From: an uncultured Candidatus Saccharibacteria bacterium
GTDB lineage: Bacteria > Patescibacteriota > Minisyncoccia > Phycocordibacterales > DATDWN01
Length of the DNA: 37,606 nt
Assembly (NCBI GenBank): GCA_964469605.1
Contig: CAYXZA010000004.1
Location: 1 to 37,606, forward strand
Direction: 5' to 3'
Part shown: positions 236 through 37,606 of the stretch, piece after piece
Numbering within the stretch: the stretch's first letter is position 1
Layout of the letters: each line of letters starts with the position of its first letter
Program-made: the position numbers and the translations under genes
The notes under the pieces: model-generated
Databases searched by the model: none
What the model saw: only the letters and a program-made list of their open reading frames with translations
What the model was told of the DNA's origin: nothing

Positions 236-354
236 TCATATATATAATTTTTTGTCAAATTATGTTTTTTTGACAAACTTCTTGATTTGTTTTTTAAAGT
301 GTTGTATGGATAAATTTTAGTTGACAAAAGTATGATGTTGGGTATTATTTAAAT

Positions 355-528
355 GTGACCATGACCATCGTTTGCACCTGACCGGTGGTAGCTTGAAGCT
401 ACCACCGGTCAAAAGAACCATTGCAGGGGTTGTCCTGCGAAAAAGTTTTTAACCAGCACTTAGGTGCTGGTTTCACCAGTTGGTGTTAGATAAGCCGGCA
501 TCCCACAAAGGAGCCGGCTTCATTTTTT
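355..528 (+). ncRNA. candidate small structured RNA of about 170 nt upstream of frr, with four hairpins and a terminal intrinsic terminator
   Basis: Upstream TTGACA (321-326) with a weak -10 about 17 nt later. Perfect 13-bp hairpin gaccggtggtagc/gctaccaccggtc (380-410). Hairpins gcagg..cctgc and accagcac..gtgctggt. Terminal hairpin aagccggc..gccggctt followed by TTTTTTT (about 492-528). No ORF. Confidence 0.4.
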
Positions 529-628
529 TATACAAAAAAAATGTTTTGTGTTAGAATCTATTTATAATTTTTTAAATTTTGAAAAAAGTTTGAAAAATTG
601 ATTTAAATAATATTAAAAACTAAAAAAT

Positions 629-1175: not shown

Positions 1176-2273
1176 ATGTTTATACTTTTATTTATACTAA
1201 TACTTGCTGTTTTGGTTTTTGTTCACGAACTAGGGCATTTTTGGTCTGCAAAAAAATCTGGTATCAAAGTTGAAGAGTTTGCTATTGGTTTTCCACCAAC
1301 CATTTTTGCAAAGAAGATAAGGGACACTGTTTATAAACTAAATATCATACCTTTTGGTGGTTATGTAAAGATCTTTGGAGAAGATCCAAGTGTAAACTTT
1401 GAAAACCTACCAGAGTCTGAAAAGTCTGAAAACTTTCAATATAAGTCAAAAATGACCCAAATTTTCGTTCTTGTAAGTGGTGTCCTGATGAATATTTTAT
1501 TTGCTTTTTTACTGATTTGGATTTCTTTTGTTATTGGAACTTCAACGCCTGTAAAATACAGTAGATTTTCTGAAGTTTCTAACCCAGCACTAACCATAAC
1601 CTCTGTTATGTCAGATTCACCGGCGGAAAAGTCAGGACTGAAACCACTAGACAAAGTTGTATTTGCTGAAAATAGCTCAAAGTCTTTACAAGAACCAATA
1701 GATCCTCAAAAACTAACAGAACTTATCCAAAAATCAGAAAAAATAACTTTACTTGTCAAAAGAGAGAAAACATCTGAACCTATAAAAATTGAAATAAAAA
1801 CTTCTGGAGATATTGTTTCCAATAAAAAAGCAATCGGAGTTTCTCTTGATAATATAGGTATCTTAAAATTACCTATACACAAGGCATTTGTTGAAGCTAT
1901 ATTTACAACAAAAGATATATTGGTATCTATAACTGTCGGAATATTTAAATTTCTATCTGGTGCTTTTTCTTCTTCTAGTATAAAAGATGTCTCTGGTCCT
2001 GTTGGTATAGCAAAAGTTGTTAGAGAAGCATCGGATTTAGGGATAATATATATAGTCAATCTAACGGCACTTATTTCTCTAAATTTAGCTGTTTTAAATT
2101 TATTACCATTTCCTGCACTAGATGGTGGTAGAATATTCTTTATTTTTTTAGAGGCTATAACTAGAAAAAAGATAAAGCCAAGTGTTTTGAATCTTGCAAA
2201 CGGTATTGGTTTTATAATACTAATCTCTCTTATGGTACTTGTAACTTTAAAAGACTTGAAAATATTGTTTTAG
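1176..2273 (+). CDS. rseP: site-2 protease, RseP-type M50 zinc metalloprotease
   Basis: N-terminal TM helix with HELGH motif (VFVHELGHFWSAK). Central PDZ-like region. C-terminal LDGG motif (LPFPALDGGRIFF). 2-nt gap after frr. Confidence 0.88.
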   Translation: MFILLFILILAVLVFVHELGHFWSAKKSGIKVEEFAIGFPPTIFAKKIRDTVYKLNIIPFGGYVKIFGEDPSVNFENLPESEKSENFQYKSKMTQIFVLVSGVLMNILFAFLLIWISFVIGTSTPVKYSRFSEVSNPALTITSVMSDSPAEKSGLKPLDKVVFAENSSKSLQEPIDPQKLTELIQKSEKITLLVKREKTSEPIKIEIKTSGDIVSNKKAIGVSLDNIGILKLPIHKAFVEAIFTTKDILVSITVGIFKFLSGAFSSSSIKDVSGPVGIAKVVREASDLGIIYIVNLTALISLNLAVLNLLPFPALDGGRIFFIFLEAITRKKIKPSVLNLANGIGFIILISLMVLVTLKDLKILF

Positions 2274-2311
2274 TTTAATATAATTAAAAAGAACGAGGAC
2301 ACAAACTACTT

Positions 2312-2355
2312 CTCGGGAGGACCAAGGGCACTAGACCCCCTCCCGAGCTTTTTTT
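2312..2355 (+). terminator. intrinsic terminator after rseP
   Basis: 9-bp GC stem ctcgggagg/cctcccgag followed by a run of 7 T. Confidence 0.7.
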
Positions 2356-2382
2356 GACAAAAATTTTTTTATATTATATACT

Positions 2383-2487
2383 TCAATTAACTAAGGTTGG
2401 AGGCTCACCCCCGAGCTCTCCAACCTTAAGTCCCAATCAGAGGGTGGTGTTTCTCCTCCGGATCCGTCCACCCTCGGGACTTTTTTG
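2383..2487 (+). ncRNA. candidate small RNA module S1: two GC-rich hairpins and a T-run
   Basis: TTGACA at 2354-2359 with an AT-rich -10-like tattat/tatata. Hairpin ggttggag/ctccaacc (2396-2425). Hairpin gagggtgg/ccaccctc (2440-2476), then gggacTTTTTT. No start codon in the segment. Confidence 0.4.
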
Positions 2488-2559
2488 TTTATAACAATTT
2501 TTACGGTATTGTAGACTTTTAAAATTTGACAAAAAAACTATTTGGTGATAGTGTTTATA

Positions 2560-2658
2560 TAAACAAGGAGCTGAATTGCCCCAGCTCCTCGGCGAAAAAT
2601 GTGGTGGGCCATCTCTCAAAAATCTTCTCTCGGCCCACCACATTTTAGCTGTTTTTTT
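2560..2658 (+). ncRNA. candidate small RNA module S2: two GC-rich hairpins and a T-run
   Basis: TTGACA at 2526-2531. Hairpin ggagctg/cagctcc (2567-2588). 13-bp hairpin aatgtggtgggcc/ggcccaccacatt (2598-2644), then a T-run (2651-2657). The overlapping - strand ORF 2437..2643 is probably an artefact of the GC-rich hairpins. Confidence 0.4.
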
Positions 2659-2769
2659 GTATAAATTTTTTAATTTCTAAACTAAATTATAGCTTTGACT
2701 GGCTGTTTTTTTTGTTATAAAAATTATCAGTATGTTTTCAGTATATATAGAAAAAAGTGGTATAAACAC

Positions 2770-2797
2770 TTGACATTTTTTTTAAATCATTTATAAT
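2770..2797 (+). promoter_or_regulatory. sigma70-like promoter TTGACA-16-TATAAT driving module S3
   Basis: Exact TTGACA (2770-2775), 16-nt spacer, exact TATAAT (2792-2797). Confidence 0.6.
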
Positions 2798-2804
2798 ATA
2801 CTTA

Positions 2805-2913
2805 TCTATCGATCGGCTCTTGGTTTAAACCCTCTTTGCCGGTCGTCAGGGCGAGATGTGTCCCTCCTTGAAGAAGAGTTCGCTCTTACTTCGGACCTCT
2901 TGCCCTGTTTTTT
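2805..2913 (+). ncRNA. candidate small RNA S3 (about 108 nt), or a structured leader upstream of proS
   Basis: Begins about 8 nt after the TATAAT box. Stem cgatcgg/ccggtcg. Inner hairpin agag-ttcg-ctct. Closing 10-bp stem cagggcgaga/tcttgccctg with one G-U pair, then TTTTTT (2908-2913). No ORF. About 95 bp upstream of proS. Confidence 0.45.
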
Positions 2914-3008
2914 ATTCTAGAAATATCCTATTTACTTATAAGTAGCCTAAGATTTTTACTTTTATCCAAAAATTGCTTTTAAGGTTTTTTTAATATAAGA
3001 TTATTTCT

Positions 3009-4250
3009 ATGAGACAAAGCAAACTTTTTACTAAAACAAGAAAAGAGGCACCAAAAGACGAGGTGTCAAAAAATGCAGAACTTCTTATTCGTGCAGGATT
3101 TGTTTACAAAGTAATGGCTGGTGTATATGCCTATACACCACTTGGATTTCGTGTTATTGAAAAAATAAAACATATAGTGCGTAAAGAGATGGATGCGGTT
3201 GGAGGGCAAGAACTTATTATGACAAATCTTCAAAGAAAGGATACATGGGAAAGTACTAATCGTTGGAGTGACTCTTCTGTTGATGTGTGGTTTAAGACAT
3301 CATTACAAGATGGAACCCCTATTGGACTTGCATGGAGTCACGAAGAAGCAATTATGGAAATGATGCAGCATTTTATAAGTAGCTATAAAGATTTGCCTAT
3401 AAGTGTTTATCAATTTCAAATTAAACTTCGTAATGAATTACGTACAAAAAGCGGTATTATGCGAGGAAGAGAGTTTTTAATGAAAGATATGTATTCACTT
3501 CATGCTACAAAAGAAGATATGGATCAATTTTATGATAAAGTAATTGAGGCATATAAAAAGATATATAACCAACTTGGTATAGGAGAAGATACATTTGTTA
3601 CATTTGCAAGTGGAGGTGCATTTACAAAATTTAGTCACGAATTTCAAACAATTTGTCCTGCAGGTGAAGATAAATTATATATAAATCAAAACAAGACAAT
3701 TGCTGTTAATGAAGAGGTTTTAGATGATGCAAGCAGAGAAATAGGCGTGGATAAAGAATCACTCACACCTGTTGTAAGTGCTGAAACTGGAAATATTTTT
3801 AAATTTGGTACTGATAAAAGTGAGAAGATGAAAATTTTTTATAAAGATATTGACGGCAATAATCAACCAGTATATTTGGCATCATATGGTATTGGTATTA
3901 CAAGAGTAATGGGTGTTATTGTGGAAAAGTATAGTGATGAAAAAGGTATCATTTGGCCAGAATCTGTTGCTCCGTTTAAAGTTCACCTGCTTTCTTTGGG
4001 AAATGATCCAAAAGTTTCTTTTGCCTGTGATGTTTTGTATGAAAAATTAAATAATCTGGGTATAGAAACTTTATACGATGACAGGGAAGTTAGAGCAGGA
4101 GAAAAATTTGCAGATAGTGACCTTTTAGGTATTCCTTGGAGGGTTATTGTCTCTGAAAAAAATCTTTCATCTGGCAAAATAGAAGTTAAAAAAAGAAACG
4201 AAGAAAATTCTACTATTATGGATGAGAGTGATTTTTTGAAGATTTTTTAA
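3009..4250 (+). CDS. proS: prolyl-tRNA synthetase, short form without the bacterial insertion/editing domain
   Basis: 413 aa. N-terminus KLFTKTRKE..ELLIRAGFV..GVYAYTPLGFRV is characteristic of ProRS. Class II core motifs present, and a C-terminal anticodon-binding-like domain. Confidence 0.85.
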   Translation: MRQSKLFTKTRKEAPKDEVSKNAELLIRAGFVYKVMAGVYAYTPLGFRVIEKIKHIVRKEMDAVGGQELIMTNLQRKDTWESTNRWSDSSVDVWFKTSLQDGTPIGLAWSHEEAIMEMMQHFISSYKDLPISVYQFQIKLRNELRTKSGIMRGREFLMKDMYSLHATKEDMDQFYDKVIEAYKKIYNQLGIGEDTFVTFASGGAFTKFSHEFQTICPAGEDKLYINQNKTIAVNEEVLDDASREIGVDKESLTPVVSAETGNIFKFGTDKSEKMKIFYKDIDGNNQPVYLASYGIGITRVMGVIVEKYSDEKGIIWPESVAPFKVHLLSLGNDPKVSFACDVLYEKLNNLGIETLYDDREVRAGEKFADSDLLGIPWRVIVSEKNLSSGKIEVKKRNEENSTIMDESDFLKIF

Positions 4251-11085: not shown

Positions 11086-11108
11086 AAAAGGCGCCGAAAC
11101 GCCTTTTT
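11086..11108. terminator. intrinsic terminator between convergent genes
   Basis: aaaaaggcgccgaaacgccttttt: a GC stem with A-run and T-run on either side, so it can act in both orientations. Confidence 0.6.
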
Positions 11109-11240
11109 CCTGCTTAGACGATTTTCGTCAATAGACTACTAGTCACCCCAGCAGATGTTTCCGGCTTGGATGCCGGTTTTGGTCTTGATCTTCATGAGAT
11201 CTCCTTTCTTTTTGTAAATTAGCATATATTAAAAATCTTG

Positions 11241-11912
11241 TCAAATGTGATGTTGTGGTGGTCTGAAAAATAATCTTTCTAGTATATCGTTTTCCTTTCC
11301 GCTTTCTACTTGTTTAGCAAATTTAAAACCTCTTTTTTTACAAGTATTTAATATGTTTTGATCCTTGCAAGCATTTACATTTCCTGTATAAATAGCTCCC
11401 AGACAATGACTTCCAAAATACAAAAATACACCCCTTAACCAAAACGGAGGGAAAGCAAAAAATAGAAGTTTTTGAACCCAAGTTGGTGTTCCTCCGGAGA
11501 CTATAAAATAAACTCTGAGGTGTCCTAACATTCCAGAAGGTTGTCCTATACGACTTTTACTTTTGAAATCTAGTGCAAAAAATCTTATTCTATCTATAAA
11601 ATTTTTTAATTTGGCTGGAACTCCAAAGTTGTATGTCGGAGTGGCAATAACCAAAGCTTTAGCATTTTTAATTTTATGACACAAAAGATCAAAATCTTTT
11701 TCTTCTGGTGTTGGACCTAGTCTGTTGTTGTAGTTGTAATCTTCTATTTTAATGTCGTTTATATAAAATTTTTCAAAGGTAACTTTTTCAGATTCTTTCA
11801 TTCCTGATATAAAATTATCAAGCATTGTGTCAGAATTGAAACCTTTTGATGGTGAACAAGATAGGGCTATAACATCAACATTTTCACTTTTTTTATCAAT
11901 AATATTTTCCAT
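11241..11912 (-). CDS. NAD(P)H-dependent FMN reductase-like flavodoxin-fold protein
   Basis: N-terminal DVIALSCSPSKGFNSDTM..; ALVIATPTYNFGVPAKLKNFIDR is typical of the NADPH-dependent FMN reductase fold. Confidence 0.6.
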   Translation of the reverse strand: MENIIDKKSENVDVIALSCSPSKGFNSDTMLDNFISGMKESEKVTFEKFYINDIKIEDYNYNNRLGPTPEEKDFDLLCHKIKNAKALVIATPTYNFGVPAKLKNFIDRIRFFALDFKSKSRIGQPSGMLGHLRVYFIVSGGTPTWVQKLLFFAFPPFWLRGVFLYFGSHCLGAIYTGNVNACKDQNILNTCKKRGFKFAKQVESGKENDILERLFFRPPQHHI

Positions 11913-14013: not shown

Positions 14014-14130
14014 AAAAAACAAAAATCCCCGAAATTCCTAGGAAATTTCAAATGGGATCTTTGATAAAAGAATACCAATTTTTTATATTTTTGTCAAATA
14101 AATTGTAAATATATTTTAGGAATTTAAGTA

Positions 14131-16723: not shown

Positions 16724-16752
16724 TTGACAAATTTTTTAGTTTGGATTATAAT
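16724..16752 (+). promoter_or_regulatory. exact consensus TTGACA-17-TATAAT element in the trxB-ftsZ spacer
   Basis: TTGACA 16724-16729, 17-nt spacer, TATAAT 16747-16752 on the + strand. The attataat core also reads as a -10 on the - strand for trxB. Confidence 0.4.
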
Positions 16753-16780
16753 AGTAATTGAAGTGCTCTTTGTTCATCGC

Positions 16781-16823
16781 AGCCGGTCTCCTACCTTTTG
16801 GTGGACTTTGAGACCGGCTCTTT
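16781..16823 (+). terminator. GC-rich hairpin with a T-run between ftsZ and trxB (+ strand terminator geometry)
   Basis: agccggtctc...gagaccggct, a 10-bp stem, followed by cTTTTTaTTTT on the + strand. Confidence 0.45.
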
Positions 16824-18002
16824 TTATTTTCCTCTATTTCTTCTAAGAAAAGCTGGAACAGCACCCCACTCATCGTCCTCTTCAACAGCGACATTTTTCT
16901 TTTCTTCTTCCGGTTTTGCTGTATTTACATTTACAGGAATAGAATTGTAAATTCTAGTATCCTCTTCTTTTTCTCTTTCTCTTGTAACAAATGTTTCTTT
17001 TTTAACCTCTTTTACTTCATCTGGGAAAATAGACTTTTTCTGGTTTTGATCTGCAAAATTTGAAGCAATAACAGTTATCTTAACCTCTCCTTTTTTAAGT
17101 GACTCGTCTCTAAATGCTCCAAATATAATCTTTGCATTTGGATCCGCAGACTCTGTTATTATTTTAGCAGCATCTTGTATTTCAAACATTGTAAGATCAT
17201 CTCCACCTGCAATAGAGAACAGAACACCTTTTGCTCCATTCATTGAAACTTCCAAAAGAGGGGAGTTAATAGCCATTCTAGCTGCTTCTTCTGCTCTTTT
17301 TTCACCTGTTGAATATCCTATACCCATAAGAGCAGGCCCAGCATTGTGCATAACAGCTCTGATGTCAGCGAAGTCTATATTTATAATACCAGGAGTTGTT
17401 ATGAGATCTGATATACCAACAACAGCTTGTTTTAAAATATCATCACACATACCAAAAGCATTTTTAGCTGTGGTTTCTTTGCTTATTGTTGAAAGTAGTC
17501 TGTCGTTTGGAATAACTATGATAGCATCAACAGCTTGACGAAGTTCATCTAGTCCACCTTCTGCAAGTCTCATCCTTTGTTGACCTTCAAAAAAGAAAGG
17601 TTTTGTAACAACGGCCACAGTTAAGGCATTCATTTCTTTTGCTATACGGGCGATTATAGGAGAAGCACCAGTTCCTGTCCCACCACCAAGTCCTCCTGCT
17701 ATAAAAACCATATCAGCACCCTTTATAGCTTCTTGTATTTCTTCTTTTGTCTCTTCAACAGCTCTTTTTCCAAGCTCTGGGTTCATACCAGTTCCAAGAC
17801 CTCTTGTTAGATTCTTACCTATGTGTATTTTTTTCTTTGCAAGAGAATGATGAAGATCTTGAGAATCAGTATTTACAGCAATAAAGTCAACTCCTTTGAC
17901 TTTGCTGTTTATCATATGGTTCAAAGCATTTTTTCCAGAACCACCAACTCCGACAACTTTGATTCTTGCAAATGCTTCTACTTCTGGTTTTATTTGTGGC
18001 AT
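16824..18002 (-). CDS. ftsZ: cell division GTPase FtsZ
   Basis: GGGTGTG tubulin signature, NTD..IGVGGGG, T7 loop region. Charged, repetitive C-terminal tail. Confidence 0.95.
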   Translation of the reverse strand: MPQIKPEVEAFARIKVVGVGGSGKNALNHMINSKVKGVDFIAVNTDSQDLHHSLAKKKIHIGKNLTRGLGTGMNPELGKRAVEETKEEIQEAIKGADMVFIAGGLGGGTGTGASPIIARIAKEMNALTVAVVTKPFFFEGQQRMRLAEGGLDELRQAVDAIIVIPNDRLLSTISKETTAKNAFGMCDDILKQAVVGISDLITTPGIINIDFADIRAVMHNAGPALMGIGYSTGEKRAEEAARMAINSPLLEVSMNGAKGVLFSIAGGDDLTMFEIQDAAKIITESADPNAKIIFGAFRDESLKKGEVKITVIASNFADQNQKKSIFPDEVKEVKKETFVTREREKEEDTRIYNSIPVNVNTAKPEEEKKNVAVEEDDEWGAVPAFLRRNRGK

Positions 18003-25924: not shown

Positions 25925-25953
25925 TTGACAAAAATATTGCAATATGCAATAAT
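25925..25953 (+). promoter_or_regulatory. promoter-like element TTGACA-17-AATAAT
   Basis: TTGACA 25925-25930, 17-nt spacer, AATAAT 25948-25953. A GC-rich hairpin begins about 5 nt downstream. Confidence 0.4.
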
Positions 25954-25957
25954 GACT

Positions 25958-26052
25958 GTGTCACCTTAACTCTGGGGGAGGAGAGGTGACACACAGCCCG
26001 GATAGCTCAGAGGTTACCACGCACGGCCTCTTTGCTTCCGGGCTTGAACTTT
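25958..26052 (+). ncRNA. candidate small RNA or leader: a GC hairpin plus a tRNA-5'-half-like hairpin
   Basis: Hairpin gtgtcacc/ggtgacac (25958-25992). Then GCCCGGA-TAGCTCAGAGGTTA...TCCGGGC (25996-26043): its first about 22 nt look like a tRNA acceptor plus D-arm, but the element is only 48 nt. Followed by T-rich sequence. Confidence 0.35.
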
Positions 26053-26095: not shown

Positions 26096-26734
26096 ATGAT
26101 AATTACACATCACGGAGTAGATTCATTTAAAGTTTCTTTTGGGGAAACTGTTATATCCATAAATCCAGTCTCAAAAGATTCTGATTTTAAAAGTAGTCGT
26201 TTTGGAGCAGATATTGTTTTGATATCTAGCAATGACACAGAACACAATGGAGCCGAAAATAATTTAAGACAAGACAAAGAAACATTTATAATATCCGGCC
26301 CAGGAGAATATGAAGTTTCTGGTATTTTTATAAAAGGATTTTTATCTAAAACAAATTACAAAAAAGAAGATGGGGTAAATACAGTTTACACTATCTCTAT
26401 GGAAGGTATGAACCTTGTATTTTTAGGTTCGCTTAGTGAAAACACTTTAAATTCAGAAGTTAAAAAAGCTACTGAAAACTGCGATATTTTGTTTTTACCA
26501 ATAGGTGCGGATGGGGTTTTAGATCCTTCTACTGCACAAAAAATAGCAGTTCAGTTTGAACCTAGAATCATCATACCTAGTCATTTTGGTCAAATAGGCG
26601 AAAAAGGTTGTCTTGAAAAATTTCTGAAAGAATCAGGAGGTGAAAAAGCTCAAAGACTTGAAAAACTGACCATAAAGAAAAAAGATATAGAAACAATGGA
26701 AGGTGAAGTTATAGTTTTAGAACCACAAATTTAA
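26096..26734 (+). CDS. metal-dependent hydrolase, metallo-beta-lactamase fold (UPF0173-like)
   Basis: MIITHHGVDSFKV start and overall pattern typical of small MBL-fold hydrolases. TGnTATAAT extended -10 at about 26073-26081. Confidence 0.65.
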   Translation: MIITHHGVDSFKVSFGETVISINPVSKDSDFKSSRFGADIVLISSNDTEHNGAENNLRQDKETFIISGPGEYEVSGIFIKGFLSKTNYKKEDGVNTVYTISMEGMNLVFLGSLSENTLNSEVKKATENCDILFLPIGADGVLDPSTAQKIAVQFEPRIIIPSHFGQIGEKGCLEKFLKESGGEKAQRLEKLTIKKKDIETMEGEVIVLEPQI

Positions 26735-34349: not shown

Positions 34350-35123
34350 TTATTTACAATCTTTTTCTTTATAAGTTATAGATAACTTACAATCACCACT
34401 AATACAAGGTTTTTCCGTAGAAAAACTAATTCTTTCTTTGTTATAATCATAAGAAAGTGTTGCATTTTTGTTATCTATTCTAAGTAGAGACTTATAAACT
34501 CCACTTAGATCATACCTTTTCATAATAATTGTATGTTTATCATAATTTGAAAAATCAAGATCAATACCATTTGGATATTTACATTTTGCAGTTTCTCCAT
34601 CTGCCAAGTCTACAACATCCGTATACAATGTATTTACATTTTTTTTGCCTTCTCCAATGGATTGGAAAAACTCAATAGAGGATTCACCTGTAAAATAAGA
34701 TTCTATTGTATTATCGGAGTATAGACTCCAAATGAATACAAAAATCAATATAGTGATGAAACTAGAACCCCATTTTTCTAAGAAACTTTTTTCTCCTTTT
34801 TTGATCTCTTTATTTAAAGAGAAAATTGTTATGAGAATAATTATTACAAATAATATTCCTATTTTTTTATAGACACTTTCCTGCAAGATAATCGGAAATT
34901 GATTATACAATACAAAAAGTGTTGCGGTAAAGGGTAGAAAAAATGTTAAACCAGCATTAGCAAATTTATCATCTTTTTCTATATATTTGTAATATGCAAA
35001 AAGTATTGTTGCGATAAAGGATATTGTTATCAATACAACAGTGACAGGAGTAAAATATATCAATGTTAAGATACCTACAATAAGAATCAGGGAAATGATT
35101 ATCAGAATCAAAGATTTAAACAT
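34350..35123 (-). CDS. polytopic membrane protein with Cys-containing C-terminal extracytoplasmic domain; possible NfeD-like partner of the SPFH protein
   Basis: 4-5 N-terminal TM helices, then an approximately 110-aa soluble domain with several Cys. Start abuts the stop of the upstream SPFH gene, suggesting an operon. Confidence 0.45.
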   Translation of the reverse strand: MFKSLILIIISLILIVGILTLIYFTPVTVVLITISFIATILFAYYKYIEKDDKFANAGLTFFLPFTATLFVLYNQFPIILQESVYKKIGILFVIIILITIFSLNKEIKKGEKSFLEKWGSSFITILIFVFIWSLYSDNTIESYFTGESSIEFFQSIGEGKKNVNTLYTDVVDLADGETAKCKYPNGIDLDFSNYDKHTIIMKRYDLSGVYKSLLRIDNKNATLSYDYNKERISFSTEKPCISGDCKLSITYKEKDCK

Positions 35124-37456: not shown

Positions 37457-37485
37457 TTGACAGAAAAAATATTCTGATATATACT
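37457..37485 (+). promoter_or_regulatory. sigma70-like promoter TTGACA-17-TATACT
   Basis: TTGACA 37457-37462, 17-nt spacer, TATACT 37480-37485. Confidence 0.5.
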
Positions 37486-37492
37486 TTATTTA

Positions 37493-37606
37493 GGTGGGAG
37501 TTGAGCACTAAAGTGCCGTGCAAGTTGATGGACTCGTCCATTCAGAGACTTGCAGATCCAAAACAACTCCCGCCTAAAATTATAAGAAGGTGCCCACAAG
37601 GCACCT
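37493..37606 (+). ncRNA. candidate structured small RNA or riboswitch-like leader; the terminator hairpin runs to the window edge
   Basis: Closing stem ggtgggagttg/caactcccgcc (one G-U). Encloses hairpin gcactaaagtgc and stem gcaagt..acttgc around ggactcgtcc. Followed by aaggtgcccacaaggcacc hairpin at the window end. No ORF. Confidence 0.45.

Follow-up and report, generated by a model that had tools for sequence, protein, structure and literature searches.

We find that the spacer between rseP and proS, a 735-bp intergenic region (positions 2274-3008) of the 37.6-kb stretch of DNA analyzed here (the window), carries three consecutive units on the plus strand whose build is consistent with that of small RNA (sRNA) genes. 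Behind the terminator hairpin of rseP (H1), the units M1, M2, and M3 follow one another, and they would represent three separate, lineage-specific sRNA genes with products of about 98, 98, and 109 nt, respectively. sRNA genes are the best available reading of the spacer, and M1 to M3 are plausible orphan sRNA candidates; whether they are indeed independently transcribed and functional sRNAs is, judged on their anatomy alone, an evenly balanced question. An earlier examination of the same DNA (the sequence-only reading) had described an rseP terminator followed by three units that each start with TTGACA, and this succession is borne out, with TTGACA boxes at 2354, 2526, and 2770. The gap had been put at 730 bp, which is slightly short, and the description of the modules as "filling" the spacer was overstated, as the hairpins cover 310 of its 735 nt. 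Listed in plus-strand order, with minimum free energy (MFE) and z-score of the predicted folds, the elements of the spacer are:

2312-2355, plus strand: H1, intrinsic terminator of rseP (fold −19.9 kcal/mol, z = −3.5)
2354-2382, plus strand: P1, promoter TTGACA-17-TATACT (promoter scan 11/12)
2389-2487, plus strand: M1, predicted RNA of about 98 nt (MFE −51 kcal/mol, z = −7.0)
2526-2554, plus strand: P2, promoter TTGACA-17-TAGTGT with TG two bases before the −10 box (−10 box read from the sequence)
2561-2658, plus strand: M2, predicted RNA of about 98 nt (MFE −44.7 kcal/mol, z = −7.0)
2770-2797, plus strand: P3, promoter with an exact TTGACA-16-TATAAT (promoter scan 12/12)
2804-2913, plus strand: M3, called S3 in the sequence-only reading, predicted RNA of about 109 nt (MFE −44.9 kcal/mol, z = −5.7)

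The promoters are the first line of evidence. A sigma-70-type promoter, by consensus match only, lies directly upstream of each unit, as is generally expected of sRNA genes, and the exact consensus that had been claimed for the third unit is recovered with the full scan score. The 735-nt spacer has three exact TTGACA copies on one strand, where about 0.27 would be expected (P ~0.003). Across both strands of the window, 13 of 28 TTGACA copies are intergenic, with intergenic DNA making up 11% of the sequence (P = 2.5e-6), which indicates that the hexamer behaves as a real −35 element here.

The second line of evidence is the predicted folding, which agrees with the claim that each unit holds GC-rich hairpins and a T-run (two to three hairpins, T6-T7, z from −5.7 to −7.0). 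The transcript ends used here are those that follow from promoter and terminator positions. M1 is predicted to form a hairpin at 2392-2428 (11+4 bp, apical loop ACCCCC) and a second one at 2429-2481 (6+8 bp, CUCCUCC in the loop), with T6 at 2481-2486. M2 would consist of an 8-bp hairpin at 2566-2589 with loop AAUUGCCC and a hairpin at 2590-2651, whose perfect 15-bp stem (2596-2610/2632-2646) encloses a C/U-rich loop of 21 nt and is followed by T7 (2652-2658). In M3, an 8-bp hairpin that includes a U.G pair (2810-2845) precedes a multi-stem structure at 2847-2907, in which a closing 10-bp helix with a G.U pair surrounds an internal loop within GUCCCUCCUU and an inner hairpin predicted to be capped by UUCG; T6 follows at 2908-2913, so that the description of this unit as a compact multi-stem RNA with a 10-bp closing stem and TTTTTT is accurate. 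In an MFE scan of 100-nt segments across the window, the modules reach −42 to −44 kcal/mol. By comparison, none of the 1,261 fully coding segments falls below −29.5 kcal/mol, and every segment with −30 kcal/mol or less lies entirely or in part in intergenic DNA.

Composition and strand point in the same direction. The hairpin segments have a GC content of 57%, versus 18.6% in the remaining 425 nt of the spacer and 30.4% in the 37.6-kb window as a whole, and segments of 57% GC would be hard to keep in a 30.4% GC genome under AT-biased drift without selection. A T6-T7 run abuts every terminal stem of the four hairpin groups, on the plus strand only, and every unit thus ends in a same-strand intrinsic terminator of the kind expected of sRNA genes (stems of 6-15 bp, then T6-T7). 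These terminators were missed by a simple terminator scan because their loops exceed its 8-nt limit. Ordinary gene terminators in the window have stems of 5-8 bp and loops of 3-6 nt, whereas the module hairpins have stems of 8-15 bp and loops of up to 21 nt, and the two are clearly different kinds of objects. Furthermore, M3 folds better on the plus strand (−44.9 kcal/mol) than on the minus strand (−37.9 kcal/mol), a difference of about 7 kcal/mol that stems from G.U pairs and that points to selection at the RNA rather than at the DNA level.

H1 stands apart from the three units. It lies 39 nt past the rseP stop codon and has a GC-rich 9-bp stem, in which CTCGGGAGG (2312-2320) pairs with CCTCCCGAG (2339-2347); its T-run (T7, 2349-2355) overlaps the −35 box of the M1 unit (2354). 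By position and sequence, H1 clearly reads as the terminator of rseP.

We observe no Rfam 15 family at gathering score anywhere in the window, including SRP, 6S, tmRNA, RNase P, T-box, riboswitches, LhrC, and RsaE, in line with the statement in the sequence-only reading that the modules do not match SRP, 6S, tmRNA, RNase P, or T-box features. The covariance-model scan that had been proposed there, with Rfam and Infernal, also gave no hit that would mark the modules as ordinary terminators of small open reading frames (ORFs), and their hairpins are unlike the terminators of the window. Permissive scans in E-value mode (E ≤ 10, lax filters), run on four subregions, of which 2200-3050, 2383-2495, and 2798-3012 take in the spacer or parts of it, returned microRNA-like hairpin noise and subthreshold sRNA shapes only; the best bacterial subthreshold matches were those of M1 to Pxr (21.4 versus 80 bits) and sX13 (18.2 versus 50 bits). 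ARAGORN called no tRNA or tmRNA in the window. blastn against phage and plasmid records gave no match to the modules. Other identities were tried and rejected as well. A replication origin was dismissed on one 8/9 DnaA-box-like string only, seen by eye (TTATCCAAA, 2962-2970), and on the lack of dnaA and dnaN among the annotated window genes; integron attC sites, retron RNAs, and guide RNAs were dismissed on the lack of integrase, reverse transcriptase, Cas, and transposase genes in the same annotation.

If M1 to M3 are sRNA genes, each would be transcribed on the plus strand from its own sigma-70-type promoter, with a transcript whose first nucleotide lies 2-6 nt ahead of a stable 5′ hairpin and whose 3′ end is set by a strong intrinsic terminator, yielding discrete, folded RNAs that would be protected from nucleases. 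Such RNAs would most likely act in trans, by base pairing of their G-poor, C/U-rich loops to purine-rich stretches of mRNA, with ACCCCC, CUCCUCC, AAUUGCCC, AUCUCUCAAAAAUCUUCUCUC, CCCUCUUU, and GUCCCUCCUU as the proposed pairing segments. Exposed C/U-rich motifs, as in C-rich-loop sRNAs, are indeed found in the predicted structures: the loops include ACCCCC, CCUCC, AAUUGCCC, the 21-nt loop of M2, CUCUUU, and CUCCUU, and over nine predicted structures (H1, M1 to M3, and five other intergenic sites) the unpaired positions are 7% G and 24% C. This specific antisense mechanism through C/U-rich loops is a tentative model, in which we have low confidence. Translation initiation in this genome bears on it, as almost none of the 38 ORFs of the window has a Shine-Dalgarno (SD) sequence. 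We also note −10-like boxes a few nucleotides before the ATG of several genes, e.g., TAAGAT 7 nt before that of proS and TATAAT 6 nt before that of the gene at 26096. Together with the scarcity of SD sequences, these boxes suggest leaderless or SD-independent initiation.

A number of results weigh against the sRNA reading, and the first of them concern conservation. Among twelve loci around ProS homologues (L001-L004, L018-L022, and L023-L025; ProS 65-76% identical where measured), rseP lies directly upstream of proS in three, with spacers of 45 bp (L004), 60 bp (L019), and 181 bp (L025), and none of these three syntenic relatives has the module insert; in the other nine loci, a different gene is found 4 to ~130 bp upstream of proS. 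Neither blastn of the modules against nine related loci nor three single-sequence covariance models run against all twelve gave a match, and scans for the long-stem patterns returned one metagenome match and 12 viral-contig matches, all of which are chance palindromes in DNA of 46-72% GC. As no collection searched holds a homologue, the structures have no covariation support. The sequence-only reading had stated that a lack of hairpin conservation in related genomes would tell against it, and no conservation is found in the relatives examined; this carries little weight, because even the nearest relative available has only about 75% identity in ProS and a conservation test over such distances has little power. 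The insert is thus specific to its host lineage, and its absence elsewhere should not be taken as evidence for a lack of function.

Two further sets of results count on the same side. Since nearly all window genes are without an SD sequence, a classic SD-blocking C-rich loop would have few targets, and pairing would depend on purine-rich sites of another kind or on the small number of genes that do have an SD sequence. In a screen of loop-mRNA duplexes against the 38 start regions, the best pairing, between an M1 loop and the gene that starts at 35123 (−21 kcal/mol), does not reach significance when the 304 comparisons, all of them with window genes, are corrected for. With respect to the promoters, P2 is the weakest of the three, with a poor −10 box that the promoter scan did not report, and the raw count of the promoter scan (5 versus 2.6 ± 1.8 expected) is not significant alone.

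The latter count is also among the points that favor an explanation without any RNA function, in which the modules are young GC-rich palindromes within an AT-rich background that abounds in T-rich and promoter-like strings. Template switching, the insertion of foreign or selfish DNA that left relics, or a role as DNA-level elements could have given rise to them. Pairing in the stems is exceptionally complete (15/15 and 11/11 bp), and long perfectly paired stems can equally be young palindromes that were never selected as RNA helices; for M1 and M2, the two strands give equally stable folds, and the insert is missing from all relatives examined. However, such palindromes would not be expected to place an exact TTGACA at the correct spacing from a −10 box three times, to carry a T-run on one strand at every terminal stem, or to give M3 its strand specificity through G.U pairs, and segments of 57% GC should decay in a 30% GC genome. 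Nor do the modules belong to a repeat family. We detect no similarity among them or to other sites in the window beyond AT-rich low-complexity matches, and no word of 6 nt or more is shared by four or more of the structured sites of the window; REP/BIME, MITE, Correia, and GC-cluster repeats were rejected, as no shared consensus is present within the 37.6 kb examined. We therefore regard palindromes without RNA function as an unlikely explanation, albeit one to be taken seriously.

A separate observation touches the same spacer in a relative. At 2822-2935 of L025, within the syntenic 181-bp spacer, we observe a long imperfect hairpin of about 114 nt that is unrelated to the modules. It folds much better in the direction opposite to the genes (−54.3 versus −40.4 kcal/mol, z = −8.7), and a MITE-like element and an antisense RNA are its possible identities. 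Structured insertions may be tolerated in the rseP-proS spacer, and a permissive site of this kind would again suit young palindromes.

The remaining explanations depend on the genes on either side of the spacer, which are as follows:

629-1174, upstream of the M50/RseP-type gene: ribosome recycling factor (frr)
1176-2273, plus strand: rseP, RseP-type M50 membrane protease, the upstream flank (Pfam Peptidase_M50, E = 7e-60)
2973-3001, plus strand: putative proS promoter TTGCTT-17-TAAGAT, read from the sequence, ending 7 nt before the ATG
3009-4250, plus strand: proS, short prolyl-tRNA synthetase of 413 amino acids, the downstream flank (Pfam tRNA-synt_2b and HGTP_anticodon)

The ORF at 3009-4250 has a class-II aminoacyl-tRNA synthetase core, and its homologues carry the name prolyl-tRNA synthetase; apart from two further NCBI contigs with the identical ProS, the best of them are 74-76% identical and are annotated as Candidatus Moranbacteria or Moraniibacteriota. 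By this annotation, the window comes from an uncultured, AT-rich, Moranbacteria-like member of the Candidate Phyla Radiation (CPR; Patescibacteria). Genes for MreB, MreC, and a PBP2-type transpeptidase lie 3′ of proS, and the other annotated window genes are ordinary housekeeping genes, e.g., ftsZ, ftsA, hisS, gyrA, ybeY, and pth. Like most genes of the window, proS has no SD sequence, and transcription from the putative promoter at 2973-3001 would possibly yield a leaderless or near-leaderless mRNA.

Control of proS in cis was considered next to independent sRNAs. M3, perhaps with M1 and M2 as stacked checkpoints, would then be a 5′ leader with conditional read-through of a terminator, in the form of a riboswitch, a protein-dependent attenuator, or a tRNA-dependent attenuator that adjusts the amount of transcription into proS. 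The order of promoter, structured RNA, terminator, and gene is the classic layout of an attenuator, M3 has the strongest promoter of the spacer and is co-oriented with proS, 95 nt ahead of it, and aminoacyl-tRNA synthetase genes are often controlled by leaders, as in T-box systems. In addition, the GGGUGGU of M1 resembles the T-box core, and CCC is present in the loop of an M1 hairpin. This last resemblance prompted a T-box interpretation that was rejected, as the context is wrong (GGGUGG is the 5′ arm of a terminator stem, and two more promoters and terminators stand between M1 and proS) and no T-box model matches in the spacer even at E ≤ 10; the best riboswitch match, to PreQ1, reaches 11.8 versus 39 bits and is on the opposite strand. 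Moreover, M3 has only about 109 nt and no evident alternative antiterminator pairing, its terminator is strong, proS has a plausible promoter of its own, and the relatives express proS from spacers of 45-181 bp without such a leader. The sequence-only reading had listed independent sRNAs, a processed multi-RNA transcript, and a cis-acting proS leader as candidate identities. The anatomy fits the first of these, whereas the other two become less likely because every unit comes with a promoter of its own and is closed by a strong terminator, and we consider a proS leader in particular to be improbable.

Terminators stacked so as to insulate proS from the frr-rseP operon, with interleaved promoters that fire short, functionless transcripts, would account for the four consecutive plus-strand terminators between two co-oriented operons, the first of which, H1, is clearly that of rseP. 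Yet a single terminator is enough elsewhere in this genome, 45-60 bp suffice in relatives, and the 5′ hairpins, the near-consensus promoters, and the antisense unit at 16724-16830 (see below) are left unexplained, which makes insulation as the sole role distinctly improbable. That the units encode small proteins is a very remote prospect: an SD-like AAGGAG (2567-2572) stands 5 nt before the TTG start of a 34-amino-acid ORF at 2576-2680, and a real-looking 18-amino-acid ORF with promoter, SD sequence, and terminator occurs elsewhere in the window (11195→11139, minus strand), but the twelve spacer ORFs (20-68 amino acids) run through terminator hairpins and T-runs and have no Pfam match at E ≤ 1 (in agreement with the earlier statement that the gap holds no credible ORF), the AAGGAG is locked within an 8-bp stem, 57% GC is far from the coding composition of the genome, and neither M1 nor M3 has an arrangement of an SD sequence plus a start codon.

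Returning to M1 to M3 as sRNA candidates, the closest known systems are LhrC1-5 of Listeria monocytogenes and, more widely, the sRNAs of low-GC Gram-positive bacteria with UCCC or C-rich loops (RsaE, RNAIII, and FsrA), with which the modules share a size of about 100 nt and a 5′ stem-loop followed by a terminator stem-loop. LhrC1-4 are encoded by adjacent genes with individual promoters and terminators, and the modules are arranged likewise. They also resemble the group in their G-poor, C/U-rich loops, with UCCC in M1 and M3. LhrC binds a G-rich site close to the start codon through UCCC or CU-rich motifs, which lie in a loop, a linker, and the loop of its terminator (PMC4132741). Unlike LhrC, the modules have no similarity to Rfam families by sequence or covariance model, and they are not paralogues of one another, whereas the LhrC copies are homologous. 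The host differs as well, as it is Patescibacteria-type and offers almost no SD sequences to block.

M1 at full length aligns weakly to sX13 of Xanthomonas and Pxr of Myxococcus, with which it has a plan of consecutive stem-loops and a terminator end in common. sX13 uses C-rich loops, and M1 has C-rich apical loops. The alignments are far below threshold (E = 0.03-0.08 with a 113-nt query) and indicate a resemblance in shape, not membership. T-box leaders are similar to the modules in being structured RNAs with a terminator upstream of an aminoacyl-tRNA synthetase gene and in the GGGUGGU string of M1; the modules, however, lack the architecture of Stem I, specifier, and antiterminator, the units are too short, and M1 is not adjacent to proS. 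A further parallel is methodological. In the GC-IGR and DIMPL approaches, an intergenic GC content far above the background of an AT-rich genome flags structured noncoding RNAs (PMC8723152, PMC6429828, and PMC11109978). The modules are like the candidates from these approaches in lying in a long intergenic region with GC well above background; those candidates are validated by covariation across homologues, and the modules have no homologue in the data searched.

The plan of a TTGACA promoter, GC-rich hairpins, and a T-run is not limited to the rseP-proS spacer, so that the three modules read as one instance of a wider habit of this lineage. We observe it, with unrelated sequences, at five other intergenic sites of the window:

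258 to ~100, minus strand: unit divergent from that at 321-533, TTGACA-17-TAAGAT, GC-rich structure of ~125 nt (z = −3.7) and a T-run
321-533, plus strand: unit upstream of frr, TTGACA-16-TATTAT (MFE −82.5 kcal/mol, z = −7.3)
16724-16830, plus strand: unit between the start of a trxB-like gene (16719) and the stop of ftsZ (16824), TTGACA-17-TATAAT (z = −4.7)
25925-26050, plus strand: unit with two strong hairpins after a promoter (z = −7.2)
37457-37606, plus strand: unit cut by the end of the window, TTGACA-17-TATACT, multi-stem (z = −8.3)

In the unit at 321-533, near-perfect GC-rich hairpins, four to five in number, extend over about 175 nt; a perfect 16-bp palindrome (379-411) is among them, and a T-run follows at 527-533. 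This unit has no Rfam match, and L004 and L019 lack it, with 64-71 bp between frr and the preceding gene. The sRNA-like unit at 16724-16830 combines a T-run with a 10-bp hairpin whose loop measures 19 nt and is antisense to both of its minus-strand neighbors. The unit at 37457-37606 has a riboswitch-like closed architecture, with a 15-bp closing helix (37489-37578) and a further hairpin, and has no Rfam match at gathering level. In the unit at 25925-26050, we note that the second hairpin starts with GCCCGGATAGCTCAGAGGTTA, which resembles the 5′ end of a tRNA, and has an acceptor-like closing stem of 7-8 bp; no tRNA was called there by ARAGORN or Rfam.

Two other sites drew attention. At 14030-14102 on the minus strand, between ychF and the next gene, a TTGACA at 14097 is followed by GAAATTTCCTAGGAATTTC, which forms a perfect palindrome, and by a T-run; no significant fold results (z = −1.1), and the site is probably a bidirectional terminator. 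The 18-amino-acid ORF at 11195→11139 (minus strand), MKIKTKTGIQAGNICWGD, has a TTGACA promoter at 11244, an AAAGGAG SD sequence, and an intrinsic terminator at 11090-11105. The ORF follows closely on a flavodoxin-like FMN-reductase gene, and its product may be a small peptide.

A broader reading is that the modules are a sample of a lineage-specific, genome-wide set of strongly promoted, GC-rich structured RNAs of ~60-180 nt in the longer intergenic regions, with a common build of a near-perfect 5′ hairpin with a large C/U-rich loop, then a terminator hairpin, and with at least 8 units in 37.6 kb. We consider this extension rather unlikely at present. If true, the number of orphan RNAs would be surprisingly high for an ultra-small, symbiont-type genome in which SD-led translation is largely absent, and these RNAs could form a new regulatory or structural class.

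As it stands, the practical value of these results is a short list of precise transcript predictions. Searches of the literature for sRNAs in CPR/Patescibacteria returned nothing specific, and the literature searched holds almost nothing on RNA-based regulation in these bacteria, which have tiny genomes and few classical regulators. If expressed, the units would be concrete sRNA candidates in the CPR, and their density would suggest that RNA regulators can be gained quickly even in streamlined genomes.

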